Positions 10,734 to 25,054 of a stretch of DNA of 64,000 nucleotides are shown here, in pieces (the first letter of the stretch is position 1; the number at the start of each line of letters is the position of its first letter). This DNA is from a virus. The notes under the pieces are model-generated. The model did not search any database and was not told the origin of the DNA. It worked only from the letters and a program-made list of their open reading frames with translations. The position numbers and the translations under genes were made by a program. Location: IMG/VR virus record IMGVR_UViG_3300036861_000610, positions 32,001 to 96,000 of that record. One strand, written 5' to 3'.

Positions 10734-10739
10734 AAAGGC

Positions 10740-10761
10740 GAGAATCCACAGTGGACAGCAT
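10740..10761 (-). promoter_or_regulatory. 3' arm of long-range stalk complementary to 25024-25046
   Basis: Plus strand GAGAATCCACAGTGGACAGCAT. Confidence 0.7.
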
Positions 10762-10907
10762 TAATGCTCTGGCCGGTAGCGCTCATTGCGACGAGCGCGT
10801 TCCTCTTCCTCGGCGATCTTGTCGTTGCGAGCCTTTTCGTCGTCAAGAACTCGCTGGCGTTCCCGGGCCGCCTCCGCGGCGGCCTCATCGCGTTCCCTAT
10901 CACTCAC
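10761..10907 (-). CDS. small charged helical peptide
   Basis: MSDRERDEAAAEAARERQRVLDDEK... 48 aa. Confidence 0.4.
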   Translation of the reverse strand: MSDRERDEAAAEAARERQRVLDDEKARNDKIAEEEERARRNERYRPEH

Positions 10908-10908
10908 G

Positions 10909-10984
10909 AGCCGCAGGGGGGAGTCGAACCCCAAGTTTTACAGGTTTTGCAGACCTGCCGCTGCGCCGGCAACGACCCCACGGC
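10909..10984 (-). tRNA. tRNA-Cys(GCA), 8/4 Sec-like fold
   Basis: 8-bp acceptor, U73, 6-bp D stem with 4-nt loop, 6-bp anticodon stem, 4-bp T stem. Confidence 0.75.
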
Positions 10985-11004
10985 CTAATCTGACCCAACT
11001 GGGT

Positions 11005-11175
11005 TCAGATCGCTGACTGGAAGCCAGCAACAATGCCTGACGAATCATCATCGTTTTTAGCTACTCGCTTCATGATCGAAGCAAGCACCGGATTGATGTC
11101 CCCCAGAAACTCGATCAGGTTCAGGTCGGTCAAATCTGGTAGGGCGTCTGCGTCAACGCCACCATCGGTGCTCAC
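11005..11175 (-). CDS. fxsA: FxSxx-COOH (FxsA-like) RiPP precursor peptide
   Basis: LPDLTDLNL...PVLASIMKRV...VAGFQSAI-stop; FxSxx C-terminus. Confidence 0.75.
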   Translation of the reverse strand: MSTDGGVDADALPDLTDLNLIEFLGDINPVLASIMKRVAKNDDDSSGIVAGFQSAI

Positions 11176-11228
11176 CGTCGCTGCCTTTCCTTTATTCAAT
11201 GTGTACCCATTCGCTTAATAATGGAGTG

Positions 11229-11300
11229 TACCCCTGGGGAGAATCGAACTCCCGCCCCGGCCTCCGGAGGACCATGCTCTATCCACTGAGCTACAGGGGT
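11229..11300 (-). tRNA. tRNA-Arg(CCG)
   Basis: Cloverleaf, loop CTCCGGA. Confidence 0.88.
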
Positions 11301-11340
11301 GAACCTGCGAAGACAAGTCCCCTAGGACTAAGCTCGCAGT

Positions 11341-11937
11341 ATGCCAAATCATCGTTCCTACACCGATGAACAACTTGAGATGGCCATTGCCTCCGCGGTC
11401 TGTTGGTCAGACGTTATGGAGTATCTGGGAAAATCCCGATCGGCAAACCCAAGGTTCGTAAAAGAGGTCGCGGCTCGACTGAAGCTCGACACGGCCCATT
11501 TCCGGAATCCGGCCCAAGTCTTCAGAACCTCGGCCTTTCCGCCTTCGTCGGAGGTGGCCAAGGGTCATGCCGGTTTAGGTGTGGCGATTGCCTGGTTCAT
11601 GAGCCGGGGGTACATGGTTCTTTTACCGATAGAGCAATCACCCTACGACCTGGTAATCGATACTGTCGATGGGTTCAAAAAGATTCAGGTGAAATCGAGC
11701 CAGAGGTCGGTTGAACCCCGACAGCGACGTGCAGTTAGATTGACCCGAAGGCTGTATGACTCTTCGGTGCCCGCAAACGCAAATGGAACTTATCGAATGG
11801 TTCAATACAAGGCCCATGAGGTTGACTACTTCTTCATCATCGTGGGCGATGGCCGCACCTATCTCATACCCTTTGAAGCTGTTCGCGACAAGTCTTCGAT
11901 CGTGCCCGAAGACAAGTATCAAGACTTTATGGTTTAG
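11341..11937 (+). CDS. PD-(D/E)XK homing-type endonuclease
   Basis: PYDLVID...KIQVKS...VDYF; opposite strand to the array. Confidence 0.85.
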   Translation: MPNHRSYTDEQLEMAIASAVCWSDVMEYLGKSRSANPRFVKEVAARLKLDTAHFRNPAQVFRTSAFPPSSEVAKGHAGLGVAIAWFMSRGYMVLLPIEQSPYDLVIDTVDGFKKIQVKSSQRSVEPRQRRAVRLTRRLYDSSVPANANGTYRMVQYKAHEVDYFFIIVGDGRTYLIPFEAVRDKSSIVPEDKYQDFMV

Positions 11938-12463
11938 GCCTTAGACCTATGTCAAGGTCCAAGACTATCGACTTCACCTGCTCGCACAACCGGCGACGGG
12001 ACATCCGACCTGGGTCCAGCACAATCCCTGTCCGCTGAGCCCGCACCGATTTCCGGAGCAAGTCCCGCAGGCGCAGGTTGTACTGCGTAAGCCACTGAAC
12101 GTCGTCCGGTCGGTAGTGCCCGATCCTGGCCTCCAGACGCTTCTTCACGTTGGCAACCGACACATCGATCAAGACGAAGTGCACCGGCACATCCTCTGGA
12201 AACGCTCCAGATTCGATCGCCTCATGCGGCTTGGTAATCCCGCAGACGACCGTTGACTTCCCCTCCCGGGCGCGGACTGCAGCCTCATGCAGCAGCAGCT
12301 CCACTCGGAAGATTCGCCAGGGGCCTGTGCCGGCCGCCGGGATGCCGTCCTCGTCAATGTCGTGGAACTCGACGTCGGCAAGGTCCGGATCCTTGCGCAG
12401 TGCCTCAAACACCGTGGTCTTGCCGGCAGTGCTCACGCCCGTAATGAAGATGATGCTGGCCAT
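11927..12463 (-). CDS. P-loop nucleotide/polynucleotide kinase-like protein
   Basis: IIFITGVSTAGKTT Walker A; DIDE; KKRLEAR lid. Confidence 0.8.
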   Translation of the reverse strand: MASIIFITGVSTAGKTTVFEALRKDPDLADVEFHDIDEDGIPAAGTGPWRIFRVELLLHEAAVRAREGKSTVVCGITKPHEAIESGAFPEDVPVHFVLIDVSVANVKKRLEARIGHYRPDDVQWLTQYNLRLRDLLRKSVRAQRTGIVLDPGRMSRRRLCEQVKSIVLDLDIGLRPKP

Positions 12464-12464
12464 G

Positions 12465-12537
12465 CGTCCTCGACTGGATTCGAACCAGCAACCTGCGGCT
12501 TCGGAAACCGCCACTCTCTCCGTTGAGCTACGAGGAC
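12465..12537 (-). tRNA. tRNA-Arg(CCG)
   Basis: Cloverleaf, loop TTCCGAA. Confidence 0.88.
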
Positions 12538-12538
12538 T

Positions 12539-12614
12539 TGGGGTGACTGGCCGGAGTCAAACCGGCGTATCCGGGTTCACAGCCCAGCGCTCTAATTCGT
12601 TGAGCTACAGCCAC
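12539..12614 (-). tRNA. tRNA-His(GTG)
   Basis: Loop CTGTGAA, C73, encoded CCA. Confidence 0.85.
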
Positions 12615-12616
12615 AG

Positions 12617-12700
12617 TGGGAGCGGAGGGACTCGAACCCCCTAAGCAATTACGCAACCGGGTTACAGCCGGCCCCACCTCACCATCGGTGGCGCGCTCCC
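12617..12700 (-). tRNA. tRNA-Tyr(GTA)
   Basis: Loop CTGTAAC, long variable arm. Confidence 0.88.
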
Positions 12701-12708
12701 ATAGGCAG

Positions 12709-13209
12709 CTAATGCTGCCGCAACTCCTTGCGCCAATCAGTCTGGCGCAACACTTCCCAGCCGTCCGCATCGAGCAGAGGCTCATCCCAGCACAAGTCCA
12801 GACACTGGGTGAAGGCGCTGTCCAACTCCTCCTGCGAATCGAAGGCGCTGTCGTCCTCCTCCGAGAACTGAACTCCGAACCCGCGGCCAAGCCACAGGTT
12901 GGGCAGCTCCTCGTCCCGGGCGCCGGCCTCGTAGGCCTCGTGCCATTCGTCCATCGTGGTCCGAGGGTCGTTGGCGGGCAGCAGCTCAGCCTCAAACCAG
13001 TCCGGCCCCAACGCCACAGACGCCCAGCCGTGCCGGTAACGGAAGTAGAACACCCGGCCGTCGGTCAATACGCCCCAGTGCTGCACTGGGCACCAGCCCC
13101 CGCCGTGGGAGGTGGCTACCCGCGGGTCGTTGAGACTGTTCTCCTGGCCAGGTTCGCGGCGCAGAAGCTCCTCCCAGGTGGAGGGAAACCACTTCGGGAT
13201 CTCCGCCAT
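12709..13209 (-). CDS. acidic Trp-rich hypothetical protein
   Basis: GGAGAGGG SD; CPVQHWG...FYFRYRHGW. Confidence 0.75.
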   Translation of the reverse strand: MAEIPKWFPSTWEELLRREPGQENSLNDPRVATSHGGGWCPVQHWGVLTDGRVFYFRYRHGWASVALGPDWFEAELLPANDPRTTMDEWHEAYEAGARDEELPNLWLGRGFGVQFSEEDDSAFDSQEELDSAFTQCLDLCWDEPLLDADGWEVLRQTDWRKELRQH

Positions 13210-13232
13210 GCTGTTGCCCTCCTCCAGGAAGA

Positions 13233-13406
13233 TCAGACCGTGCCTTTACCACCACAGTTGCCGCAAGCCTTGTGGGCTCGACCACTGCCGCCACAGCCGC
13301 CGCAGGTTGTGCGACTACTTCCACTCCCAACCTGGCCCTGACCTCTGCAGGCGGGACAGGTGTCCATCTTGCCGCCAGAACCGCCGCATGCACTACACGT
13401 AGCCAT
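13233..13406 (-). CDS. DnaJ-type zinc-finger microprotein 1
   Basis: Four CxxCxGxG repeats in 57 aa. Confidence 0.8.
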   Translation of the reverse strand: MATCSACGGSGGKMDTCPACRGQGQVGSGSSRTTCGGCGGSGRAHKACGNCGGKGTV

Positions 13407-13431
13407 GTTGGCCTTTCCTGAGGGGGAAAAG

Positions 13432-13529
13432 TTGACTGACGACAGGAATCGAACCTGCATAGATGTCATCTCGCACGAGGCATCGTTACCGGGCTCAGGG
13501 ATCCTGCGTGCGCAGTCAAACCCCTTCCT
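13432..13529 (-). ncRNA. degenerate tRNA-like element
   Basis: TTGACTG/CAGTCAA ends; T-arm GCAGG-TTCGATT-CCTGT; no canonical D or anticodon arm. Confidence 0.45.
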
Positions 13530-13567
13530 CCGGCTCCAGGCCATCTGGGACCATCAGCCAACAATCG

Positions 13568-13642
13568 GGTGACCGAGGGGCCACGATCCCCCCGCCTCCG
13601 GATCCACAGTCCGGCGCTCTACCAAGATGAGCTACGGCCACC
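13568..13642 (-). tRNA. tRNA-His(GTG)
   Basis: G-1:C73, loop CTGTGGA, atypical T loop. Confidence 0.82.
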
Positions 13643-13742
13643 AGGACGGGAAGCGCTTCCCGTACGGCCTGTCACAGCTTCTCGTCCCCCGCCCCCGGCC
13701 GCCCGGAGAGAGGCTTACCCCGGGATTTCACCGGGAGCCGAG

Positions 13743-13815
13743 TAGGTACGGAAGGACTCGAACCTTCGGTCACCGTGGTGTGAACACGGGGCTTTTGCCG
13801 CTAAGCTACGCACCC
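13743..13815 (-). tRNA. tRNA-Val(CAC)
   Basis: Loop TTCACAC. Confidence 0.88.
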
Positions 13816-13826
13816 ATTGAATTACG

Positions 13827-13895
13827 TACCCCATGTGGGAATCGAACCCACTCAGCCGATTTATAAGGACGGCGCCCTCAACCAAAGAATGGGGC
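13827..13895 (-). tRNA. tRNA-Ile(TAT), non-canonical fold
   Basis: Loop CTTATAA, short D arm, mismatched anticodon stem. Confidence 0.6.
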
Positions 13896-13905
13896 ATAGG
13901 GAAAG

Positions 13906-13978
13906 CTGAGACGTCCAGATTCGAACTGGAATTTTCCGGTTAACGGCCGGATGTCGTGCCGAGTTGGACCACGCCTCA
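13906..13978 (-). tRNA. tRNA-Asn(GTT)
   Basis: Loop CCGTTAA. Confidence 0.82.
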
Positions 13979-13997
13979 AAGACATTGATACATGTCG

Positions 13998-14070
13998 CTC
14001 CCTGACTTGGATTCGAACCAAGGACAAGCCGATTAACAATCGGCGACTCTGCCAACTGAGCTACCAGGGA
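13998..14070 (-). tRNA. tRNA-Asn(GTT)
   Basis: Loop TTGTTAA. Confidence 0.9.
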
Positions 14071-14154
14071 ATGATGGCGGCCATTTGCGCCAAACAAATG
14101 GCCGCCGTGCGTTTTCGCCTACCAGAGCGACCTTCCCGAAGGAGGGTCAACGCG

Positions 14155-14227
14155 TAGTCCCAACGGGATTCGAACCCGCGCCGCCGGCTTGAAAGGCCAG
14201 TATCCTGGACCGCTAGATGATGGGACC
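14155..14227 (-). tRNA. tRNA-Glu(TTC)
   Basis: Loop CTTTCAA. Confidence 0.9.
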
Positions 14228-14348
14228 TAAAGTGGCGCGCCTAGTCTTCGCAGAGTTGGACCCAGTGGCTCGGGCTTTACCTGTGACCCTGGCGCGCCAA
14301 CGCCCCCAGACCTCAGGACTTTTCCCTATCCCCCTTTGAAGACTTGCG

Positions 14349-14423
14349 TACCCGCAGAGGGAGTTGAACCCCCGAACCTTCTCCGTGTCATAGAGATGCT
14401 CTACCAAGCTGAGCTATACGGGC
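14349..14423 (-). tRNA. tRNA-Val(GAC)
   Basis: Loop ATGACAC. Confidence 0.88.
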
Positions 14424-14517
14424 ATGGTGAAGTCGCAAAACCTGACCCTTTTGCGCGGTGCGCTGCCGTCCAGCAAAGGTGACAACCTTGCGGCCATCTG
14501 TGGTTGCTGGAACCCCG

Positions 14518-14593
14518 TGGCGGGAGCCGGATTTGAACCGACGATCTCAGGATTATGAGCCCTGTGGGGACGACCTAACTCCCCTACCCCGCT
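14518..14593 (-). tRNA. tRNA-fMet(CAT)
   Basis: 1:72 mismatch, GGG-CTCATAA. Confidence 0.85.
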
Positions 14594-14595
14594 AG

Positions 14596-14669
<74 letters not shown>

Positions 14670-14689
14670 TCGCGTTTGTTGCTGCTGCC

Positions 14690-14719
14690 ACCCTACCCCG
14701 GGAGGGGGTGTGGTGGCAA
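14690..14719 (-). promoter_or_regulatory. internal promoter before fMet tRNAs
   Basis: TTGCCA-18nt-TAGGGT overlapping ACCCTACCCCGGGA. Confidence 0.5.
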
Positions 14720-14722
14720 CCG

Positions 14723-14798
14723 TACTCCGGGAGGGATTCGAACCCCCGATTTTTGCTGATTAAAAGTCAGGCCCAATTGACCGCTCTGGCACCGGAGT
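14723..14798 (-). tRNA. tRNA-Lys(TTT)
   Basis: Loop CTTTTAA. Confidence 0.85.
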
Positions 14799-14813
14799 GT
14801 GTAGTAGGTGAAG

Positions 14814-14888
14814 TAGGTCGGGTGGGATTCGAACCCACGTAACTCTGCTTAAGAGGCAGGCCTATAACCAGGCTTTAGGTACCGACCT
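14814..14888 (-). tRNA. tRNA-Lys(CTT)
   Basis: Loop CTCTTAA. Confidence 0.85.
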
Positions 14889-14926
14889 ATATGGACCTGC
14901 GCCGTAGTGCGACCCGTCGCAAGTCC

Positions 14927-14999
14927 TGGCGCCCCACCCGGGATTCGAACCCGGAACGCCAAGCTTAGAAGGCCCGGCTGTGTATCCGACACGAGAGGC
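14927..14999 (-). tRNA. tRNA-Arg(TCT), non-canonical fold
   Basis: No 8-9 linker, GTGT/ACAC D stem, 7-bp anticodon stem, GCCA end. Confidence 0.75.
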
Positions 15000-15006
15000 T
15001 TTAAGC

Positions 15007-15116
15007 CCTTCAAGAACCCCTACCCCCGGCTCTCTGCTCGGACTTTCACCGAAGAGTACATCCCCTCTGACCTTGCGGCCGTGGGACTGTTCCGGGAGTG
15101 CGAGGGTCCTTGAAGG
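15007..15116 (-). ncRNA. unassigned structured RNA
   Basis: Closing stem CCTTCAAGGACCCT/GGGGTTCTTGAAGG; internal GGCC-GCAA-GGTC and CGGTGAAAGTCCG. Confidence 0.5.
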
Positions 15117-15119
15117 TTG

Positions 15120-15193
15120 TGCCCCGTACGGAATTCGAACCCGCGCTCACAGGGCTTTAGAGGCCCCGGCTCTGACCGCTGAGCTAACGAGAC
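15120..15193 (-). tRNA. tRNA with CTA anticodon (amber suppressor candidate)
   Basis: GGGGC-CTCTAAA-GCCCT in a full cloverleaf. Confidence 0.85.
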
Positions 15194-15375
15194 TCACTGG
15201 GTCCATGAACGGTGATTGTAGACGAATCTCCATCTCTTTGGCTGGAGTAGGCAGTAACGGTGACCTTGGCGCTATCGGGTATACCTGCCCGCTCCGCTTG
15301 CTCAATGAGCCAACGCAGGTCCCCCAAGGCAATGGGGTTCGAGACGGTGAAGGTATTGGTTCGATTTCTGGGCAC
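15184..15375 (-). CDS. small hypothetical protein
   Basis: ORF fills the inter-tRNA gap (VPRNRTNTFTVSNPIALGDLRWLIEQ...). Confidence 0.4.
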   Translation of the reverse strand: MPRNRTNTFTVSNPIALGDLRWLIEQAERAGIPDSAKVTVTAYSSQRDGDSSTITVHGPSESR

Positions 15376-15376
15376 G

Positions 15377-15451
15377 TACTTCGGGTGGGATTCGAACCCA
15401 CGATTTTCCTGATTAAGAGTCAGGTCCAATTGGCCGCTCTGGCACCGAAGC
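15377..15451 (-). tRNA. tRNA-Lys(CTT)
   Basis: Loop CTCTTAA; body resembles 14723-14798. Confidence 0.88.
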
Positions 15452-15467
15452 ATTTCTCTCACTTGCG

Positions 15468-15556
15468 CGGAGACGGGGAGAGTCGAACTCCCACGGGATT
15501 TTCAGGCCCCACACTGTTTTCAAGACAGCTGCCGGCGCCCATCGGCTGGCGTCTCC
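15468..15556 (-). tRNA. tRNA-Ser(TGA)
   Basis: Loop CTTGAAA, long variable arm, G73. Confidence 0.88.
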
Positions 15557-15688
15557 ATAGTCTTGCTGCAGCGGCAATTTTCGTCGCCGCACGGTTCCAG
15601 GTTCGCCCCGCCCCATGGATTGTCTCCCGGGTCGAGGAGGTCCTTGTCGAGTGACTCCAAAATTGCGTCCACGTCGATTGGTTTCACG

Positions 15689-15775
15689 CGGAAGGCGCGA
15701 GATTCGAACTCGCGGCGGCTTTTACCCCGCACCCGCTTTCCAGACGGGCTCCCATAACCAACTGGGGCGCCTTCC
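15689..15775 (-). tRNA. tRNA-Ser(GGA)
   Basis: Loop CTGGAAA, long variable arm. Confidence 0.88.
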
Positions 15776-15852
15776 AGGCTTGGCTTCTCATTTTTACCGA
15801 GCTGAGAAACCTCCGTGCAGCACACTCCTTTGGGGAGCCACGGGAAACCCGC

Positions 15853-16011
15853 TCATCGGAAATGCCAGCCGAACCCCTCGGGGCACTCGAACACTTCCTT
15901 GTTCTTCGGGTACTGCTTCACCTTGTCCTGCACCTGGGCGAGGATTCGGTAGCCAACCAGCCGGCAGGTGTGACACCAGTACCGGTCCCTGTCACGTTTC
16001 TGCCTGGTCAC
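15853..16011 (-). CDS. small Zn-binding protein (CHTC...CPEGFGWH)
   Basis: 52-aa ORF by manual translation. Confidence 0.5.
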   Translation of the reverse strand: MTRQKRDRDRYWCHTCRLVGYRILAQVQDKVKQYPKNKEVFECPEGFGWHFR

Positions 16012-16012
16012 G

Positions 16013-16098
16013 CGGAAGACCGGGGACTCGAACCCCGAACGGTTTTTAGGCCGTTACACGCTTTCGAAGCGTGCTCCTCATCCAGCCGGATGCCTTCC
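16013..16098 (-). tRNA. tRNA-Ser(CGA)
   Basis: Loop TTCGAAA, long variable arm. Confidence 0.88.
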
Positions 16099-16190
16099 AA
16101 CGTGGTCCCCCCGCCCCCAAAGCAGAGGGACCACCTTCCCTGGATGCCCGCTCGGACAAACGGTTCCACAGGGGGCTTGAGGGGGAGTAT

Positions 16191-16352
16191 CTACCCCGTT
16201 TTTCCTGAGCCGCGGCAGGTGCCACAAGTCTTACGACCGCCACCACCGCAGGTACCACAGCGAAGAGCATCCGTTCGGCCCGAACGGCCGGTACCACTAC
16301 AGGTGCCGCACGTAACCGTCCCAACACCGCCACAGGTGCCACAGTTTGCCAC
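16191..16352 (-). CDS. DnaJ-type zinc-finger microprotein 2
   Basis: GAGGAG SD; MANCGTCGGVGTVTCGTCSGTG...CGTCGGGG..CGTCRGSG, 53 aa; not in ORF track. Confidence 0.8.
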   Translation of the reverse strand: MANCGTCGGVGTVTCGTCSGTGRSGRTDALRCGTCGGGGRKTCGTCRGSGKTG

Positions 16353-16381
16353 TGATCATTCTCCTCTTTGAGTCCGATACG

Positions 16382-16456
16382 TCTGGGTAACAGGATTTGA
16401 ACCTGCGGGCCTCCGCGTCCCGAACGCGGCGCTCTACCAAACTGAGCTATACCCAG
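16382..16456 (-). tRNA. tRNA-Pro(CGG)
   Basis: Loop TTCGGGA. Confidence 0.9.
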
Positions 16457-16512
16457 AATTCCCCCGCCAGGAGGCCCCGGAAGCGGAGGATCTGCTACCA
16501 GTTGCAGCAGAG

Positions 16513-16587
16513 TCGGGATGACAGGATTTGAACCTGCGAACCTCCTGACCCCCAGTCAGGCGCGCTACCAAACTGCGCTACACCCCG
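16513..16587 (-). tRNA. tRNA-Pro(GGG)
   Basis: Loop CTGGGGG. Confidence 0.9.
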
Positions 16588-16737
16588 ATAAGCCTCAAGA
16601 ATAAGGCTCCTTGCCGCGGATCTCGTAATACAGGGCCCGGAGTACTGCCCGCACCGGATCCAGGCCGACGTGCCGGCGGTAGTGCCGGAACGAGTCCTGC
16701 AGTGCCCACCAACGGCTAACGTTACGACCCCTCATGG

Positions 16738-16974
16738 CTAGAACTCCACGTAGAAGGTATCTCCTCGTTTGACACCGTACGGCGCCCAGACTACGTCGTG
16801 GAAGTCCCGCGCCCTGACGACGTTGCCGACGAGCTTGTTGTCGAACAGGAGCAGGTTGCCGCAGATCTGACAGTCCGTGCTCGCGCCGGCCAGCTGGTCG
16901 GCGCTGTAGGTGCTGTTGTACTGGTGGCCGCAGTCGGTAACGATGACCGTGCCGCCGTTGCCGTTGACCTTCAT
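16738..16974 (-). CDS. small Zn-ribbon protein
   Basis: GGAGGAG SD; CGH...CQIC. Confidence 0.65.
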   Translation of the reverse strand: MKVNGNGGTVIVTDCGHQYNSTYSADQLAGASTDCQICGNLLLFDNKLVGNVVRARDFHDVVWAPYGVKRGDTFYVEF

Positions 16975-16993
16975 CGCGCTCCTCCAGGAAACG

Positions 16994-17066
16994 ACCCTAC
17001 GACTGGATTCGAACCAGCAAACCTCTTCGTTCATAGCGAAGTGCTCTTCCGTTGAGCTACGTAGGG
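16994..17066 (-). tRNA. tRNA with ATG anticodon (His-like)
   Basis: CTTCG-CTATGAA-CGAAG; U73, no G-1. Confidence 0.78.
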
Positions 17067-17069
17067 AAG

Positions 17070-17143
17070 CGCCCACAGAGGGATTCGAACCCCCGACCTT
17101 TGGTTCCGTAGACCAACGCTGCTATCCGCTGAGCTATGTGGGC
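17070..17143 (-). tRNA. tRNA-Arg(ACG)
   Basis: Loop CTACGGA. Confidence 0.9.
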
Positions 17144-17243
17144 ATATCTGTGAACCTGGACCCCGTGGTCCAGGTTCACCTTTCCGATGAGGAATTCGGT
17201 GGCAGCCGCTTTATCGATGGAGTTGGCCTCGTCGGCCTGGCGG

Positions 17244-17318
17244 TAGGAACGGGAAGAATCGAACTTCCGACCTCCGAGTTATCAGCTCGGCGCTAACTAA
17301 CCACTGAGCTACGCTCCC
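17244..17318 (-). tRNA. tRNA-Ile(GAT)
   Basis: Loop CTGATAA. Confidence 0.9.
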
Positions 17319-17454
17319 ATTGGTGGTGGGCGCAGAGGCGACCTACGCCGAATAGTCGCTGCAGCCCAGCCAGAATCATCTGCTCGCGCGAACTGCAGCG
17401 AGGGTCTGGCAGCCTATGACACTGCAGCTATCCCCTTTTACGCCAGGGACACCG

Positions 17455-18407: not shown

Positions 18408-18433
18408 GGGTCGCAGTTTACTACAAGTGCGTT

Positions 18434-18511
18434 TGGTACCTACGGGGAGACTCGAACTCCCAACCTCCGGGACCTGAACCCGGCGCCTCTGCCAAATTGG
18501 GCTACGCAGGC
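18434..18511 (-). tRNA. tRNA-Leu(CAG), short variable loop
   Basis: Loop TTCAGGT, ACCA end. Confidence 0.88.
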
Positions 18512-18630
18512 AAGGCACCCCAGTTTTTTCAGTCCACGATCATTGCCTCGCGAGCCTGATCGCTTTCCTTTGCGTCAATGTCGTGCGTCCCCCTGGGGTT
18601 AGGGCTTGACGCTGTCCGTGGAACCGGGCG

Positions 18631-18822
18631 TGGACCTGGCGGGATTCGAACCCGCGACCAATGTAGGCGGTGAGGTAACGCGCTTCCCTGCCGAGGGTTG
18701 AAGTTCCTTGTCCTGTGGTCTTCTACACCACGGGCTCGGTCCCGGTGCATCCGATAAACCCTTTTCCGTCGTGACCCGGCTCCGTTTTTCCGGCGCTCTG
18801 ACCCTTCCTGAGCTACAGGCCC
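18631..18822 (-). ncRNA. 192-nt tRNA-Ala-like RNA with anticodon arm replaced by a long hairpin
   Basis: GGGCCTG/CAGGTCC-A (G3:U70), intact D and T arms, insert with GTTACCTC. Confidence 0.75.
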
Positions 18823-18835
18823 ATTGCTCCTTGCG

Positions 18836-18911
18836 TGGATCCGACGGGATTCGAACCCGTACCTCTGCAAACCGTTAGCTGCTTATGCTCTCGCCATTAA
18901 GCTACGGACCC
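18836..18911 (-). ncRNA. tRNA-Ala-like RNA with aberrant anticodon arm
   Basis: GGGTCCG/CGGATCC-A (G3:U70), normal D and T arms. Confidence 0.65.
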
Positions 18912-18922
18912 ATTATTGACGA

Positions 18923-19087
18923 CTACCTTGAACCGCACCCACAGGAAATCTGCCCTGAGCCACCGCAGGTTCCGCAGGTTCTCTGCAGACCGCCGCTGGC
19001 GCGTATGAAGCCTTTACCATCACATGCGGCGCACTTGGTGTACCCATTGCCGCGACAGTTTGGGCACACCGGCTTCTTGTCTGCCAC
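18923..19087 (-). CDS. DnaJ-type zinc-finger microprotein 3
   Basis: AAGGA SD; CPNCRGNG, CAACDGKG, CGTCGGSG, CGCG. Confidence 0.75.
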   Translation of the reverse strand: MADKKPVCPNCRGNGYTKCAACDGKGFIRASGGLQRTCGTCGGSGQISCGCGSR

Positions 19088-19150
19088 GTGTTGGTTCCTT
19101 CTGGTGAGTTGCTTTGACCGCGGGAAGCGTAATGCCCGGGGCCATCTTTT

Positions 19151-19242
19151 TGGGGTGCGTGGGAGGACTTGGTTGACCCCCATCTTCCGCCACATGTTCG
19201 CGACGTCGGAAATGCGGTGCTCTACCTTGAGCTACACGCACC
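19151..19242 (-). ncRNA. tRNA-His-like RNA with expanded anticodon region
   Basis: G-1:C73 plus CCA, normal D arm, non-canonical anticodon and T loops. Confidence 0.6.
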
Positions 19243-19243
19243 G

Positions 19244-19316
19244 TGGAGCTTGCCGGACTCGAACCGGCCACCTCCGCCTTGCAAAAGCGGCGTTCTACCA
19301 GATGAACTAAAGCCCC
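19244..19316 (-). tRNA. tRNA-Ala(TGC)
   Basis: G3:U70, loop TTTGCAA. Confidence 0.92.
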
Positions 19317-19487
19317 GCAGAAGCCAGAGCTGATGAGTAACCCTGGCTTCCTAGTCGTTTGCCGTTCTGCCCGCTCAACCGAACTACTAGGCACTCTCGA
19401 CGACTGGCGAGATTCTGGATCAGGGAAGCGCACCTTTAGACCAGTTCGTTCCTCGGGAGCTACCCGAGGCCGAGCTTCTCTGACACG

Positions 19488-19560
19488 AGCCAACGACGTG
19501 GATCGAACACGCTACCTCCCCCGTACGAAGGGGGCGCCCTACCTTCAGGGCCTCGCTGGC
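19488..19560 (-). tRNA. tRNA-Thr(CGT)
   Basis: Loop TTCGTAC. Confidence 0.82.
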
Positions 19561-19569
19561 ACTCTCTTG

Positions 19570-19854
19570 CTACCAGGACACTGAGACCGGCGCGTACCAG
19601 TCCATATCCTCACGGTCGGCGGCCTGCGTTTTGAGCAGGCCCTGGCGGACCGTCCGCCAGGCGGCACGCTCCTGGCCGCGCAGGTGCTTACGGAACAGCT
19701 GACCTACGCACAGGTTGCAGCCGCAGGTGTTGTACAACGGCCACGGCTCTAAGCCCTGGCCGCCGTGCCAGTCGGGGCGCCATAGCATCCGATGCCGGTT
19801 GTACGGGTCTGCCGTCTGCACCTGGAAGGGGCGATGAACGTCGGTTCGGGACAT
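19570..19854 (-). CDS. hypothetical 'MSRT' protein
   Basis: MSRTDVHRPFQVQ...CGCNLC...Arg-rich helix. Confidence 0.7.
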   Translation of the reverse strand: MSRTDVHRPFQVQTADPYNRHRMLWRPDWHGGQGLEPWPLYNTCGCNLCVGQLFRKHLRGQERAAWRTVRQGLLKTQAADREDMDWYAPVSVSW

Positions 19855-19896
19855 GTGACGACCTGTCCTTCGGCCGCCTGGAGACTTTCCCCAGGG

Positions 19897-19917
19897 CTAA
19901 CACCGGTTGACGTGCAT
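19897..19917 (-). promoter_or_regulatory. uORF (MHVNRC-TAG) with downstream alternative hairpins
   Basis: AAGGAG SD; CCTGG/CCAGG hairpin overlapping GGCGGCC/GGTCGTC hairpin. Confidence 0.55.
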
Positions 19918-19951
19918 CGTGATCACTCCTTTTTAGGTCGATACTGAGCAC

Positions 19952-20158
19952 ATGAGCGAAACTGTCCAGATCATTTCCGCGGTGACCACCGGCGTGGTGG
20001 CCATCATCGCCGCCTACGGCGCCATCCAGGCCAAGAAGGTCCATACGATTGTGAATTCTCGAACCGACGCCATGGTGGCTCGGATCGACCAGTTGGTCAA
20101 GGAGCTGCATGTCCGGGGCGATGGCTCCGTTCCAGAAACCCCAGAGAAGAAGGATTGA
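19952..20158 (+). CDS. small membrane protein
   Basis: N-terminal TM helix plus coiled segment. Confidence 0.6.
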   Translation: MSETVQIISAVTTGVVAIIAAYGAIQAKKVHTIVNSRTDAMVARIDQLVKELHVRGDGSVPETPEKKD

Positions 20159-20230
20159 GCCGGCGGTAGGGCTCGAACCCACTGCCTCGGAGGTACAAGC
20201 TCCGCGCTCTACCCGTTGAGCTACGCCGGC
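20158..20230 (-). tRNA. tRNA-Thr(TGT)
   Basis: Loop CTTGTAC. Confidence 0.9.
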
Positions 20231-20234
20231 ACTG

Positions 20235-20309
20235 TGCTCACCACGGGATTCGAACCCGTACTGTCGGCCCCCTCAAGACCGTGCCTCCTGCCAGTTGGGC
20301 TAGGTGAGC
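20235..20309 (-). tRNA. tRNA-Leu(GAG), short variable loop
   Basis: CGGTC-TTGAGGG-GGCCG. Confidence 0.82.
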
Positions 20310-20315
20310 ATGCGT

Positions 20316-20519
20316 TTATGGTTTCTTTTCGACGAGAAGGTCGGCAACTCGCTGCACCTGTGTCGCCAGATGCAATAGTGCCCAGACCTGAGCATCCTGA
20401 ATTGCTGCCGCGACACAATTTGGATCTTCATGGTGCCAAGATCGTTTGAGTGAACGTCGTGCTTCTCTTTCGAAGTCTTGAACCGTCTCTACGCGTGCTG
20501 CTTCTTCTTTATGATTCAC
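20316..20519 (-). CDS. hypothetical protein
   Basis: 67-aa helical ORF filling the gap. Confidence 0.5.
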   Translation of the reverse strand: MNHKEEAARVETVQDFEREARRSLKRSWHHEDPNCVAAAIQDAQVWALLHLATQVQRVADLLVEKKP

Positions 20520-20520
20520 G

Positions 20521-20599
20521 TGAAGCTGCCGGGATTCGAACCCGGGTCCTCGACTATTCCGCTGTACGGTTTTGCAGCCAAGTCGTACCCACCAGCCCC
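20521..20599 (-). ncRNA. minimal tmRNA-like RNA (tRNA-like domain only)
   Basis: GGGGCTG, stemless D loop, CGAC...GTCG-AGGAC, T-arm, CAGCTTC-A. Confidence 0.7.
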
Positions 20600-20708
20600 A
20601 TTTTGCTTGGCCTTGTCGCTCAGAGCTTCACAGGCCCTTTGCGCCCACATCCGGCGGTGTTACTTAGTACCGCGCCCACCAGATAGCCAAGCTGGTGGGT
20701 TCCTAGCG

Positions 20709-20780
20709 CACCCGGCCAAGGATTCGAACCTCAACTAACAGAGTCAGAGTCTGTTGTCCTGCCATTTAGACCAGCCGGGT
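20709..20780 (-). tRNA. tRNA-Gln(CTG)
   Basis: Loop CTCTGAC. Confidence 0.9.
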
Positions 20781-20824
20781 AGGGGGAGGATCCGCAAATT
20801 CGCGGTCGGCGGATCCTCCCGGAA

Positions 20825-21274
20825 TCAGCGCTGAAGGGTGGCCCACGTGGGAGCGTAGGGCTTCACCTTCAGGGTCATACCGGCCTCGTTGGGCAGCCGG
20901 TCACCCTTGAGCTGATTGCACGGGTCGCAACACGCGACGGTGTTGACCCAGGTGTTCTTCCCGTCCCGAGAGACGGGGCGGATGTGGTCCACCGTGGTTC
21001 CCTTGGTGCTGCCGCAGTAGCCGCAGCACCGGTTGTCCCGACGGAGGACGCCAGCCCGAGACCAGGTCGGACCGGCCGTGTATCGCCACTTGGTGACGAT
21101 GAAGCGAAGCAATCTGACAGCGGTTGGCCGAGGCCATGCACCGAACTGTATGTCAGGCTCCGCTTCGTGGATCTCTGCTATACCGCGGCAGAGCATCCGG
21201 ATTGCGTGTCTGAGGCTAACCCGGTGCAGTGGACCGAGGTCAGCGTTCAGAACCATAACTGCTGCCCCTTGCAT
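20825..21274 (-). CDS. HNH endonuclease (HNH_5/McrA-like)
   Basis: VLNAD...RD..CGYCG...TVDHIRPVSRDG..W.N.V.CC..CN..K. Confidence 0.9.
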   Translation of the reverse strand: MQGAAVMVLNADLGPLHRVSLRHAIRMLCRGIAEIHEAEPDIQFGAWPRPTAVRLLRFIVTKWRYTAGPTWSRAGVLRRDNRCCGYCGSTKGTTVDHIRPVSRDGKNTWVNTVACCDPCNQLKGDRLPNEAGMTLKVKPYAPTWATLQR

Positions 21275-21320
21275 CGAGTCACCTCCTTTGCGTGCAGAGG
21301 GGTTATCAATCTAGGTCACG

Positions 21321-21393
21321 AGCTGACGACGAGATTCGAACTCGCGACCCTCACCTTGGCAAGGTGATGCGCTACCAACTGCGCCACGTCAGC
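21321..21393 (-). tRNA. tRNA-Gly(GCC)
   Basis: Loop TTGCCAA, U73. Confidence 0.92.
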
Positions 21394-21474
21394 ATGTGGA
21401 AGGAGAGGAACCGTAAACCGGTCTTCCTGCCGGCATCCCGGCGCGGACCTTGTACCAGGTCTCCGTCTCCAACG

Positions 21475-21547
21475 AGCCTGCACCGGGATTCGAACCCGGA
21501 ACCTCCCCCTTACCATGGGGGCGCTCCACCTGGTGAGCTTTGCAGGC
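21475..21547 (-). tRNA. tRNA-Thr(GGT)
   Basis: Loop ATGGTAA. Confidence 0.88.
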
Positions 21548-21584
21548 GAAAACCCAGGCCACGAGGAGCTGGGTCAGTATTGCG

Positions 21585-21657
21585 TGCCCCCGCCCGGATT
21601 CGAACCGGGAACATCCGACTTTTGAGATCGGCGCCTCTGCCATTGGGCTACGGGGGC
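21585..21657 (-). tRNA. tRNA-Leu(CAA), short variable loop
   Basis: Loop CTCAAAA. Confidence 0.88.
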
Positions 21658-21660
21658 GTG

Positions 21661-21945
21661 CTACCAGTAGGCCTTTTCGGGGTCGAAGTCCGCCCATAGG
21701 ATCTCAGTCTTGACGTGGGCGTAGTTGCGCAGCTGCACCAGCTCCTTGTGGGCGACGATGCAGTCGTCGCAGATCCAGACCACCAGATCGGGGGCACTCA
21801 TCGTCGGGTCCCAGATCCGGCTGCCGTAGTTGCCGTGGGCCGCGAAGAGCAGCCCGCGGTTGGGGGCTTTGGAGTCATCCTCGTAGTCTTCGGCGAAGTT
21901 TCCGAATGCCGACTCCAGGGTCTTGAGGCATTTGAAGCAGTTCAC
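21661..21945 (-). CDS. hypothetical Zn-binding protein
   Basis: CFKC...GNYGSRIWD...ICDDC. Confidence 0.7.
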   Translation of the reverse strand: MNCFKCLKTLESAFGNFAEDYEDDSKAPNRGLLFAAHGNYGSRIWDPTMSAPDLVVWICDDCIVAHKELVQLRNYAHVKTEILWADFDPEKAYW

Positions 21946-21946
21946 G

Positions 21947-22017
21947 CTCGGGCACCTAGGTTCGAACTAGGACTCCTGCATCCAAAGTACAGTGGGCTCC
22001 CATTACCCCATGCCCGA
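21947..22017 (-). tRNA. tRNA-Gln(TTG)
   Basis: Loop CTTTGGA. Confidence 0.87.
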
Positions 22018-22021
22018 AAGG

Positions 22022-22092
22022 AACCGAGTACGGGAATCGAACCCGTTCGATCAGTTTGGAAGACTGAGATGCAGCCATCACATTCACTCGGC
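22022..22092 (-). tRNA. tRNA-Gly(TCC)
   Basis: Loop CTTCCAA. Confidence 0.85.
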
Positions 22093-22247
22093 TTGGCCTG
22101 GGCGGCGAGGAACAAGTTCCCGACGCCTTGCATGTCCCCACCCTATGGGCGCGGCCCAGGCTACGAAACTGACGTTGGGCTCCCTAGGTCAGTCAACCAG
22201 GATGAGCAGCCTGGTCCCGGGGAAGAACCGGGGGGCGGCATTGCCCG

Positions 22248-22321
22248 TAGAGCGTACGGGGTTCGAACCCGTATTCTCCGCCGTGAGAGGGCGGCGAGAT
22301 GACCAATTACTCCAACGCTCC
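22248..22321 (-). tRNA. tRNA-Glu(CTC)
   Basis: Loop CTCTCAC. Confidence 0.9.
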
Positions 22322-22465
22322 ATTGTTGCCCCCGCCGCAGGGTTTTTGTGTCGGCCTTGAGCCTTTGATCGCGGCCGATCTCCCTGCGCGGGGGCGTTCA
22401 CTGGTCAGGAATGTCTAGGGACGTCACTCTAGGCATTAAGGCGCCTGCCAGCTGTTCGTGAGTAC

Positions 22466-23488
22466 CTAGATCAGGTACAGGTACCGGGTGCCGGCGATCA
22501 GCTTCCGGTTGATCGACGTCGACTGGACGTAGATGTCGAAGTCGGGGTTGTGGTTCGGGCTCACCCGCACGTTCATGTCGGGCAGACCCACCATCTGACG
22601 CGCGTCCCGGCCGCTGTACACCTTGTGGTCCTTCTTGCCGACCACCATGATGTCCTTCGTCGCCTGGATTTCTTCACGCTTCATCAGCTGGTAGAACCCG
22701 CGGCCGGCCTGGTAGTTGTGGCCGCACGCCTTGGTGAACTCGTCGATGCGCGAGTCAGTTGGCACTGGCACCAGGACATAGGTGCCTTTTGCCATCGGCG
22801 TGAGGCCGGCCTGGGCGATGGTCTGGACGTTTACTGCGTCGGCGCCGGTGGAGAACAGGTTCCGGGTGGACCGGACGCCGGCTCGACGGGCCTGCATGTA
22901 GTTCTCGGTGGCGTCTCGGACGCGGTCTCCAGCTTCCCCGACGCCAGCTGCCGAGTTGGGGTTCCAGATCTCGATGTTGCCGGCGGAGAAGCCGAACTGT
23001 TTGGCCTCACGCATGCCCATGGCGTTGGGCACCAGTGCCGCAACGGTCCAATGGTCTTTGAGGCCGGCGAGACGCGCCTTGAGGGTGGCCGGTCGGTTAA
23101 CGCTGCGGTTTTCTTCGCCGTCGGTCAGGACGAAGACCAGGAACGAGTGGTCGCCGTAGCGTTCTGGGGTCTCCCCCAGGTGGTCCAGGGCCTGCAGTGT
23201 GGCGTCGATGAACGCGGTGTTGCCAAACGGTGTGTAGAAGCTGCTGATGCTCGGCAGCCGCAGCACATCCTTGTCCCAGACGACGCATTCGATGCGGTTG
23301 GGGTCGGCGAATGTCCACACCGAGATCCGGGTCTCCTGGTCCAATTCCTTGGACCGTCGGGCCAGGTGTTCAATCTGGCCGTCGGCGACTTTGATCAGGT
23401 CCTTTTTGTGCGGCGTCATCGAGGTCGATGCGTCTAGCACGAAGGCGATGTGGTTGATGATGTTGGCAATTGGTGCTGTCGCTGGCAT
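22466..23488 (-). CDS. vWA-domain protein
   Basis: MIDAS DASTS, T, TDGEEN. Confidence 0.88.
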   Translation of the reverse strand: MPATAPIANIINHIAFVLDASTSMTPHKKDLIKVADGQIEHLARRSKELDQETRISVWTFADPNRIECVVWDKDVLRLPSISSFYTPFGNTAFIDATLQALDHLGETPERYGDHSFLVFVLTDGEENRSVNRPATLKARLAGLKDHWTVAALVPNAMGMREAKQFGFSAGNIEIWNPNSAAGVGEAGDRVRDATENYMQARRAGVRSTRNLFSTGADAVNVQTIAQAGLTPMAKGTYVLVPVPTDSRIDEFTKACGHNYQAGRGFYQLMKREEIQATKDIMVVGKKDHKVYSGRDARQMVGLPDMNVRVSPNHNPDFDIYVQSTSINRKLIAGTRYLYLI

Positions 23489-23674
23489 CTATCACTCCAG
23501 GAGCTGTTGTGGATGTTGGTCCACATCCTGCTCTTGGGGTACGACAAGTTTTGTGCGCCGTGCGGCAAGGGAATGGCCGCAGTCCTTGTTAACCGCCAGC
23601 GTGGCTCGCCGCCTGGTCCTGCGGGACTTCGGCGCGGCTTCAATCGCGAGCTTCTGCTGCTTTACGGCACAACG

Positions 23675-23747
23675 TGTCCCCGGGCGGATTCGAACCGCCG
23701 TACTCCGACTTTTCAGGCCGGCGCTAAACCATCTCAGCTACAGGAAC
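23675..23747 (-). tRNA. tRNA-Phe(GAA)
   Basis: Loop CTGAAAA. Confidence 0.9.
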
Positions 23748-23787
23748 GTGTGCTGGATGGGTCTAGCCACCCAGACTTTTGAGGGAT

Positions 23788-23964
23788 TCAATTTGAAACG
23801 GTGCCTCGGCCGCCGCATCGGTTGCAAGGAACCGTTCCGGGTCCACCGCATCCTGTGCATTTGGTGATGTTGTCTTTTCCGCTTCCGGTGACGCCTCTTC
23901 CGCTACACGCAGAACATGTGATGGAGCCGGAGCCGGAACAGGTGGGACAAGACCGAGTAGGCAT
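23788..23964 (-). CDS. DnaJ-type zinc-finger microprotein 4
   Basis: CPTCSGSG, CSACSGRG, CTGCGGPG, CNRCGGRG; 58 aa. Confidence 0.8.
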   Translation of the reverse strand: MPTRSCPTCSGSGSITCSACSGRGVTGSGKDNITKCTGCGGPGTVPCNRCGGRGTVSN

Positions 23965-23993
23965 GATCTTCTTTCGTTTCGGGGCGGTGAATA

Positions 23994-24066
23994 AGCCTCC
24001 CCGAGGAATCAAACCTCGAATCTCCAGCCATATAAAGACTGGCGCTCTGTCGATGAGCTAGGAGGC
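23994..24066 (-). tRNA. atypical tRNA, probable TAT anticodon
   Basis: CCAGTC-TTTATAT-GGCTGG 6-bp stem; one-nt acceptor/D linker. Confidence 0.55.
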
Positions 24067-24171
24067 ATGGGCCACAGTAGATGGGTCAGATCCAGGCCGT
24101 CGCCCGCTACTACCCGCGCAACGCTGCGGTTCCATTGCGAACCATGTACATTGGCTTTCCCTTTTGGTGCG

Positions 24172-24244
24172 TGGAGCTACGGGGATTCGAACCCCGGACC
24201 TTCCGCATGCGAAACGGATGCTCTACCAGCTGAGCTATAACCCC
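24172..24244 (-). tRNA. tRNA-Ala(CGC)
   Basis: G3:U70, loop TTCGCAT. Confidence 0.92.
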
Positions 24245-24466
24245 ATGGAACCGGCGGGGGCAGGGTTACCCGCCCTGAGGCTTCCCCACGCCGGGCTTTT
24301 GTGATCCGTCTTTCTGGCCCCTCAGGACGGATCAACCGAGAGCATCTCCAGCCGCACGAAGGGCTGCTGCCAGTGAGGAAAGACTGTGCTGGGATCCCGG
24401 GAGACCACGGAGAGGCAACCGGATGAGCAGCCCTTTGCGGCCCAGGGAAGGACCGGGATCCCAGAG

Positions 24467-24539
24467 TGGAGATGAACGGATTCGAACCGATGACCTTCCG
24501 CCTGCCAGACGGATGCTCTACCAGCTGAGCTACATCCCC
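24467..24539 (-). tRNA. tRNA-Ala(GGC)
   Basis: G3:U70, loop CTGGCAG. Confidence 0.92.
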
Positions 24540-24731
24540 AAAGGTGCCCGAGGTGGGGTGGGCTAATCCCGGTCCTACTCCCAGCTGCTGGACCTGACCC
24601 ATTGGGCAATGGGTCAACCTCTGCCGGACCCGTCTGTTGCTCCGGCCTTTCAGAAAGGGGCTTTCACCCTTACCGCAGGAGGCTTTTCTTGAAGCTTGCT
24701 TCGCTCGCGCTCAGCGTGCCTGCTATGCCTG

Positions 24732-24804
24732 TCGGGCACCCCGGGGTCGAACCGGGTGTCTTCAGTTCCCAAAACTGACGGGTTAACCGTCTCCCTCGTG
24801 CCCG
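24732..24804 (-). tRNA. tRNA-Pro(TGG)
   Basis: Loop TTTGGGA. Confidence 0.85.
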
Positions 24805-25023
24805 AGAGTTAGAGACTGCCCTGGCCGGCAACCGATGGCCCGTCGCTCCAACGACTATGCGGAGGAATTAGCGGTCCTCACCACGACGCGCGTTGGCCAC
24901 AACGGATCGACCGGCCAGGGCATGTATCTATGAATGTGCTCCTGGCCCGACGATGCCGCCGGGGGCCGTCACCCGAAGGTGCCGACATTCATTGGCCTTG
25001 CCAGGCCAGGAACATCTACACAC

Positions 25024-25054
25024 ATGCTGTCCACTGTGAAGTTCTCAAGAAACA
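25024..25054 (-). promoter_or_regulatory. rrn-like boxA plus 5' arm of processing stalk
   Basis: TGTTTCTTGAGAACTTCACAGTGGACAGCAT; complement at 10740-10761. Confidence 0.7.

Follow-up and report, generated by a model that had tools for sequence, protein, structure and literature searches.

A phage tRNA array bracketed by leader and trailer elements of the actinobacterial pre-23S rRNA type

Why should a long phage tRNA array be enclosed between two short complementary sequences? The question is raised by a 64,000-nucleotide (nt) stretch of DNA (the window), which corresponds to bases 32001-96000 of a 147.9-kb virus record of IMG/VR (IMGVR_UViG_3300036861_000610), has 62% G+C and contains genes for a terminase, a portal protein and a Ro60/TROVE protein as well as an open reading frame (ORF) of 6683 codons. 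ARAGORN called 51 tRNA genes in the window, 50 of them on the minus strand. The original prediction was that the minus-strand transcript carries a boxA and two pairing arms, as an rRNA operon does, and that the arms surround almost the whole array. Sequence comparisons presented below indicate that the arms belong to a real, conserved, host-derived RNA module, a known type of element in a new use. We consider it probable, on the same kind of evidence, that the tRNA cassette is a pseudo-rRNA operon, in which an rrn-type boxB/boxA/boxC leader and a leader-trailer helix surround tRNAs in place of 23S rRNA and are served by Nus factors and RNase III. The parts of the locus needed to follow the argument are listed here.

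25081-25153, minus strand: tRNA-Trp (CCA), outside the helix, the last gene ahead of the leader element (ARAGORN, Rfam).
25024-25047, minus strand: 5' (leader) strand of the long-range helix, with the boxC-like core CACAGUGGAC.
10908-24804, minus strand: tRNA cargo between the arms, 48 tRNA genes from tRNA-Pro(UGG) to tRNA-Cys(GCA), with small ORFs.
10739-10761, minus strand: 3' strand of the same helix (trailer), AUGCUGUCCACUGUGGAUUCUCG, with which the leader strand forms its most stable duplex.

The predicted enclosure was borne out, since 48 of the 50 minus-strand tRNA genes called by ARAGORN lie between the arms; the two outside are tRNA-Trp, which adjoins the 5' arm, and a distant tRNA-Arg (1142-1215). 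The small ORFs of the enclosed cargo include one for a 340-amino-acid VWA protein (22466-23488). Both arm sequences are as originally given: minus-strand positions 25055-25024 read ...GUGUUUCUUGAGAACUUCACAGUGGACAGCAU (5' arm), and positions 10761-10740 read AUGCUGUCCACUGUGGAUUCUC (3' arm). Pairing over 15 perfect bp, extendable to about 22 bp with one bulge, had been claimed, and cofolding of the arms with RNAcofold gave 15 perfect bp within a helix of 23 bp that contains two G.U pairs and one bulged C, at about -41 kcal/mol. Among 1975 windows the trailer was the top partner of the leader (-41.7 kcal/mol; background -15.0 ± 3.6). Taken simply as an inverted repeat, the arms are at chance level: the window contains seven exact long-range inverted repeats of at least 15 bp (three reach 16 bp), and the number expected from first-order Markov simulations with the composition of the window is 3.9 ± 2.0 (maximum 8). 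Because the repeat itself is at chance level, its significance has to be sought in comparative data alone.

Megablast and blastn searches with the array and with both arms found no relative of the phage in GenBank. The family is known from metagenomes only and consists of uncultivated soil phages, presumably of actinobacteria. Its members were found by an exact 15-mer scan of IMG/VR, by looser scans of viral and metagenome contigs and with a portal-protein profile (G000 stands for the phage of this window, and the other G and L labels for related metagenomic contigs). The exact 15-mer scan returned mostly single, chance-looking matches, together with three large contigs that carry the 15-mer twice in opposite orientation. 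A search with the Ro60 protein gave G002 as the sole relative, a search with the hydrolase protein gave no relative, and a scan with the conserved arm of a CAU tRNA-like RNA, described below, gave G001 only.

The same layout is shared by at least nine metagenomic lineages and reads, in the direction of transcription, tRNA-Trp, hairpin, CTTGAGAAyT-CACAGTGGAC..AGCAT, hairpin, tRNA-Pro ... tRNA-Cys, complementary arm, tRNA(CAU). It was seen in G000-G005, G009 and the short contigs L233, L237 and L238, with L232, L236, L243 and L244 as partial contigs. The cargo ranges from 11 to 48 tRNA genes, and the enclosed span from 1.05 kb in the mini-array of L237, which has 11 tRNAs, through 4.7 kb in G005 to 11-18.2 kb in the others. 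The orientation of the cargo relative to the outside tRNA-Trp and tRNA(CAU) is the same in every lineage. tRNA-Trp occupies the same place in G000-G003, G005, G009, L237, L232 and L244, the exception being G004, where a tRNA with a CUA anticodon is inserted between tRNA-Trp and the arm. G005 deviates: its enclosed array begins with tRNA-Ala and ends with tRNA-Arg, and there is no tRNA(CAU) behind the arm. Portal proteins of the relatives are 84, 74, 70, 67 and 67% identical to that of G000, and the intergenic flanks of the lineages have no recognisable similarity to each other. In relatives whose portal identity does not exceed 57%, the motif is absent and the portal gene is accompanied by just 1-4 tRNAs. 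The distance from the last tRNA to the trailer strand is 3-5 nt in G002, G003, G005 and G009 and 454-592 nt in G004 and G001. In the phage of this window 146 nt (10762-10907, minus strand) separate tRNA-Cys from the trailer strand, and this segment is a Glu/Arg-rich frame whose TAA falls exactly at the arm.

To assess the specificity of the pairing, all 40-nt windows of regions of 14-20 kb were compared with the leader segment as possible partners. In seven of seven lineages the lowest energy, -33.8 to -41.7 kcal/mol, belonged to the site that follows the last enclosed tRNA at a distance of a few bases to about 600 nt, the background being about -15 ± 3.5 kcal/mol (-19.7 ± 4.0 in G005). The helices of eight lineages comprise 19-29 inter-arm pairs, GAGAA/UUCUC included, with energies of -33 to -41 kcal/mol. 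Covarying pairs were tabulated by script, and the search for them around the tRNA arrays of related phages, which had been suggested as a check, was successful: the variant arms of G005 and G009 keep the pairing. In G005 GGACAGCAU/AUGCUGUCC is changed to GGUGAGCAU/GUGCUCACC by two adjacent two-sided changes (A-U to U-A and C-G to G-C), and there is a third two-sided change (C-G to A-U) as well as three switches between Watson-Crick and G.U pairs. G009 has a matched 1-nt insertion, with an extra A in the leader (GUGGAACAGCAU) and an extra U in the trailer (GUGCUGUUCUGCUGUGG), and three of its Watson-Crick pairs are turned into G.U pairs. The latter changes preserve pairing in RNA and break the palindrome in DNA. 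Relative to the hosts, both phage arms also have a matched loss of 3 nt (GCG and CGC).

The origin of the element was traced by comparison with bacterial rrn operons. A pattern made from the phage leader matched more than 120 loci of a bacterial genome collection, which among the matches listed were Actinomycetota throughout, with taxa such as Streptomyces, Kitasatospora, Micromonospora, Microbacterium, Rhodococcus, Nocardia and Acidimicrobiia. Among the matches listed, 80 of 80 loci contained TTGAGAAyTnCACAGTGGACGCGAGCATC, which in most of them abuts the 5' end of the 23S gene and in some (e.g. Microbacterium) is separated from it by a short spacer; the complementary GCT(C/A)CGCGTCCACTGTG..GTTCT (in RNA, GCU(C/A)CGCGUCCACUGUG..GUUCU) was found some 3.15 kb further on in each of the 45 listed loci with sufficient downstream sequence. 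The operon of Streptomyces tritici, in which Rfam places the 23S gene at 4886-1770, may serve as an example: the motif ends 5 nt before the 23S gene, the trailer comes directly after it, and the 16S leader holds a sister copy, CCUUGAGAACUCAACAGCGUGCC. The earlier statement that actinobacterial rrn operons carry a boxA running into a stalk of similar sequence was borne out: the host sequence just 5' of the 23S gene nearly equals the phage element, and its complement lies behind the gene. The phage leader is approximately 87% identical to the Streptomyces element in the internal transcribed spacer (ITS; 34 matches in 39 aligned bases, as judged by eye, and a gap of 3 nt), and the phage trailer AUGCUGUCCACUGUGGAUUCUCG matches the host 23S trailer GCUCGCGUCCACUGUG..GUUCU. 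The missing nucleotides are GCG in the phage leader and the matching CGC in the phage trailer. Host 23S stalks have 28-32 pairs, and the GAGAA/UUCU extension is common to host and phage stalks.

The leader element of the phage sits after tRNA-Trp, in which it resembles the ITS copy, unlike the leader copy, and the element is assigned specifically to the ITS/pre-23S type. Its homology to the rrn element, fixed position, conservation and covariation are direct observations. In the whole phage genome the leader motif is the only rrn-like piece, with a 20-21-nt match to four host rrn loci. Capture of an rrn operon that left remnants was also considered and was rejected, as nothing beyond this 20-21-nt leader motif matches host rrn loci.

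Several further elements accompany the two arms, as follows.

25060-25071, minus strand: small boxB-like hairpin CCGG-GAAA-CCGG, from folding, 4-13 nt ahead of the boxA-like run.
25039-25055, minus strand: boxA-like run GUGUUUCUUGAGAACUU, which contains CTTGAGAACT.
24937-25014, minus strand: conserved hairpin just after the leader strand, with the stem UCCUGGCC...GGCCAGGA, from folding.
10664-10733, minus strand: tRNA-like RNA with a CAU anticodon loop, 5-12 nt past the trailer strand.
10617-10652, minus strand: strong intrinsic terminator with an 11-bp stem (9 G-C pairs) followed by a U-tract, closing the unit in this phage.

The order of an rrn leader is found here: an upstream hairpin (six lineages), the boxA-like run and then the invariant boxC-like core CACAGUGGAC. 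The hairpin occupies the boxB-like place in all six aligned lineages with varying stems (CCGG/CCGG, CCCC/GGGG, CCTC/GAGG and CCCCG/CGGGG); its conservation was judged by eye, without a statistical score. The boxA-like run, also written CUUGAGAA, has the phage consensus GUUnCUUGAGAAyU, and the boxC-like core can likewise be written CACAGUGG or GAACUUCACAG. CTTGAGAACT occurs once in the 148-kb phage genome and is identical in the ITS and 16S-leader copies of the hosts. By its letters, the GUUnCUUGAGAA run resembles the boxA consensus of both E. coli (UGCUCUUUAACA) and B. subtilis (AUGAUCUUUGAAA) (PMC13753749). All lineages have the hairpin behind the leader strand, and its stem varies in a compensatory way: TCCTAGCC/GGCTAGGA in G003, TCCCGGCC/GGCCGGGA in L236 and GCCCAGG/CCTGGGC in G005 and L237. 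The CAU tRNA-like RNA is kept after the trailer strand in six lineages, and 14 of the 22 pairs of its cloverleaf covary (five lineages). ARAGORN calls it tRNA-Met(cat) in G001, G003, G009 and L237, and in the G000 window neither ARAGORN nor the Rfam tRNA model gives a call. With its G1.U72 pair, short D arm (3-bp stem) and variable T loops, non-canonical in several lineages, it could be an odd tRNA of the Met/Ile2 type or a processing signal. A consensus scan of positions 9600-29500 revealed no promoter of the sigma-70 type.

The host ITS motif also matched gene-free stretches of cultured actinophages, namely Mycobacterium phages Kumao and Reindeer and Streptomyces phages Manuel, Alone3 and LuckySocke; the BLAST E-values were marginal (0.08-0.3), so these matches are a lead only. 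The three that were inspected (Kumao, Manuel and Alone3) have GTTnyTTGAGAAyTnnAnAGTGGAC ahead of genes on the same strand, at the following positions.

L286, 1176-1201: stand-alone motif of Mycobacterium phage Kumao.
L287, 1173-1206: stand-alone motif of Streptomyces phage Manuel.
L245, 4951-4987: stand-alone motif of Streptomyces phage Alone3.

A long block of genes after the motif was seen for Alone3 only (genes 215-204), and promoter-like hexamers lie upstream of the motif in Kumao and Alone3. No partner arm beyond chance was found in Alone3, Kumao or Manuel. These stand-alone copies may be antitermination sites of the rrn type that work independently of an N protein.

A second boxA-like site had been proposed just before the Y RNAs. 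The sequence, CACCTTTGACAACT, is indeed present at 29068-29055, and its conservation could not be upheld, as the closest relative has no counterpart; the second boxA was therefore rejected. A promoter-like TTGACG-17 nt-TACTGT lies at 29125-29160 (minus strand), upstream of the Y-RNA/Ro60 block, and is followed by CCUUUGACAACU, which is not preserved in G002.

Because the flanks of the array nearly copy the signals of host pre-23S rRNA, the phage probably transcribes and excises its tRNA cassette in the manner of rRNA. A long and mostly untranslated tRNA transcript is an obvious target for Rho, which provides the rationale for antitermination. According to this model, the nascent boxA/boxC would load host Nus factors of the rrn antitermination complex, and RNA polymerase would then gain speed and resistance to Rho over the 1-18 kb of the cassette, whose RNA is highly structured and for the most part untranslated. 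The leader RNA would remain tethered to the polymerase until the emerging trailer pairs with it to form the helix of about 23 bp, which host RNase III would cut as it does the 23S stalk, freeing the array from its flanks. Formation or cleavage of the helix would probably also end the antiterminated state. Nus binding, RNase III cleavage and a benefit to the phage are what we infer from the sequences. No RNase III or NusB encoded by the phage was found in its genome, so host factors would have to act.

Published work on rRNA operons gives these steps a background. In E. coli the leader-trailer helix has to be longer than approximately 17 bp, and its 5' strand holds boxC, which hardly varies and coincides in part with the RNase III site (PMC10250234). 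In M. tuberculosis rrn boxC is a specific NusA site (PMC2724277), in P. acnes staggered cuts were mapped in the complementary flanks of 23S rRNA (PMC3848588), and the rRNA of S. coelicolor is processed by RNase III (AbsB) (PMC4681348). Since the boxC-like element of the phages lies inside the helix, its core would be conserved as a sequence, beyond the needs of pairing.

Several points weigh against the proposed pseudo-rRNA operon. RNase P and other enzymes should release the first tRNAs early and the trailer emerges up to 18 kb later, so the leader would have to survive and to stay tethered all this while; its tethering to the elongation complex is an assumption taken from E. coli models. A literature search found no paper showing binding of NusB/NusE to the actinobacterial GUUnCUUGAGAA run. 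As the core of the helix is identical in most lineages, the covariation comes from two independent variant lineages, and there is one uncompensated A.C mismatch each in G004/G008 and in G005. Finally, by eye, no comparable terminator follows the unit in the G001 and G002 sequences shown.

The strongest competitor, unlikely in our judgement, is that the arms never pair and act as independent recognition sites or decoys, the 5' arm as a site of the boxC/NusA type and the 3' arm as a second site or a sponge for a factor of the pre-23S flanks. Most phage lineages, all sampled host loci (where the search pattern required it) and even Kumao and Alone3, where a partner arm is lacking, have the core CACAGTGGAC unchanged, and such invariance points to a constraint on the sequence itself, beyond pairing. 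Independent sites would not be expected, on the other hand, to change together, as they do in G005 and G009, where changes of the 5' arm are mirrored in the 3' arm down to a matched insertion; the complementarity also reaches into the variable GAGAA/UUCUC part, and the sequence of the 3' arm has no known protein partner.

Action in trans on the host, by pairing of the arms with the pre-23S flanks or by titration of processing or antitermination factors in a way that disturbs ribosome synthesis, appears very improbable. In its favour, perfect complementarity between the phage arms and the opposite host flank persists over 10-15 nt, and the phage transcript would be abundant. Loss of GCG and CGC from both arms has nevertheless made the intramolecular partner better than the host flank, and the arms always stand at the two ends of a tRNA cargo, neither of these features being needed by a decoy.

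A role at the level of DNA, with the inverted repeats as sites of recombination or inversion or as boundaries of a mobile tRNA cassette, deserves still less credence. It would suit a module of variable content (11-48 tRNAs) bracketed by an inverted repeat, with an ORF bearing an HNH-like motif adjoining its 5' end. It does not suit the constancy of the cargo orientation relative to the outside tRNAs, the G.U changes of G009, which keep RNA pairing at the cost of DNA symmetry, or the homology of the arms to a known RNA helix; moreover, no adjacent recombinase was found, and Pfam was blank for the neighbouring ORF. That the arms are a chance repeat, as a 15-bp long-range inverted repeat is expected in 64 kb, or a functionless fossil of a captured rrn operon is just as hard to believe, given their exact position, the lack of any other rrn remnant in the genome and the retention of both arms in at least eight lineages with dissimilar intergenic surroundings (three with changed yet complementary arms, one with a single uncompensated change).

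Compared with the rrn operons of Actinomycetota, the phage cassette has a nearly identical leader (CTTGAGAAyTnCACAGTGGAC..AGCAT) and complementary trailer (..GTCCACTGTG..TTCT), the same helix architecture down to the GAGAA/UUCU extension, and the same manner of bracketing a block of stable RNA. It differs in being virus-borne, in its cargo of 11-48 tRNAs (1-18 kb) in place of the 3.1-kb 23S rRNA, in having tRNA-Trp where the 16S and a tRNA(CAU)-like RNA where the 5S rRNA would be, and in a helix 3 bp shorter than that of the host, owing to the missing GCG/CGC. Large tRNA clusters of Bacillus subtilis are transcribed with rrn operons, downstream of 5S and outside the stalks. They too place many tRNA genes on transcription signals of the rRNA type, whereas the tRNAs of the phages replace the rRNA inside the stalk. 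With E. coli rrn (PMC10250234, PMC4807359, PMC6614797) the phages share a hairpin, boxA and boxC within the 5' strand of a long-range helix, a boxC-like core that is nearly invariant while the remainder varies, and a helix longer than the reported critical 17 bp. E. coli has other sequences (its boxA is UGCUCUUUAACA) and has been studied far more closely with regard to function than actinobacteria, and the phage loop is up to six times the size of any rRNA loop. The nut sites of lambda (boxA-boxB-boxC, acting with the N protein) likewise place a copy of the host rrn-type boxA in a phage transcript for termination-resistant RNA polymerase, a function presumed here. In contrast to lambda, the order is that of rrn, with the hairpin before boxA, no N-like protein is evident, and the element forms one unit with a processing helix that surrounds stable RNAs, a feature missing from lambda. 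In full-text searches of the literature no description was found of a phage tRNA array inside an rrn-type helix, nor of a boxA in actinophages.

Some other features of the window deserve mention. The last enclosed tRNA (10908-10985, minus strand) has a GCA (Cys) anticodon, yet Rfam scores it as tRNA-Sec (52 bits, 9-bp acceptor stem); this combination of a selenocysteine-like fold with a cysteine anticodon appears to be conserved at the same place in the relatives. Two possible suppressor tRNAs lie at 15119-15193 and 18835-18911 (minus strand), one with a CUA (amber) and one with a four-base CUAA anticodon, and the extra CUA tRNA of G004 is located just 5' of the leader (L226), after tRNA-Trp. 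The ORF at 25144-25692 (minus strand) terminates within the 5' end of tRNA-Trp; its final ~350 nt (about 25496-25144) are visibly AT-richer and encode CxxC...DH..N...CxxHH motifs, HNH-like by eye, so that it may be an inserted homing endonuclease. A Pfam search with this ORF gave no match. The Ro60/TROVE protein, with its vWA domain, is encoded at 26706-28316 (minus strand), and upstream of it, at 28761-29002 (minus strand), there are weak YrlA-like and tRNA-like matches, both below the gathering score. The 6683-codon ORF is a single frame at 35831-55882 (plus strand), just downstream of the portal/head-protease region.

Arrays of tRNA genes are common in phages, and they raise the general question of how such RNA, 5-20 kb long, structured and untranslated, is processed and evades Rho. 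The element described here offers a concrete, testable answer in the form of a borrowed rRNA leader, boxC and processing helix. A more far-reaching version, towards which we lean slightly less than away from it, is that the phage hijacks the host rrn antitermination complex and carries the tethered leader for up to 18 kb, the longest programmed RNA-RNA closure known in bacteria. With the arrival of the trailer, the RNase III site would come into being and the Nus factors would lose their hold on boxA/boxC; the pairing itself would thereby switch antitermination off where the cassette ends. If this were true, the stand-alone motifs of Kumao, Manuel and Alone3 would make N-less antitermination of the rrn type a general strategy of actinophages. 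Cassettes of multiple tRNAs or of other stable RNAs could be expressed in Streptomyces or mycobacteria by means of the leader-cargo-trailer module. Selection in the phages delimits the functional core of the little-studied actinobacterial boxA/boxC and, because the same helix closes loops of 1-18 kb, the phage family constitutes a natural experiment on leader tethering.

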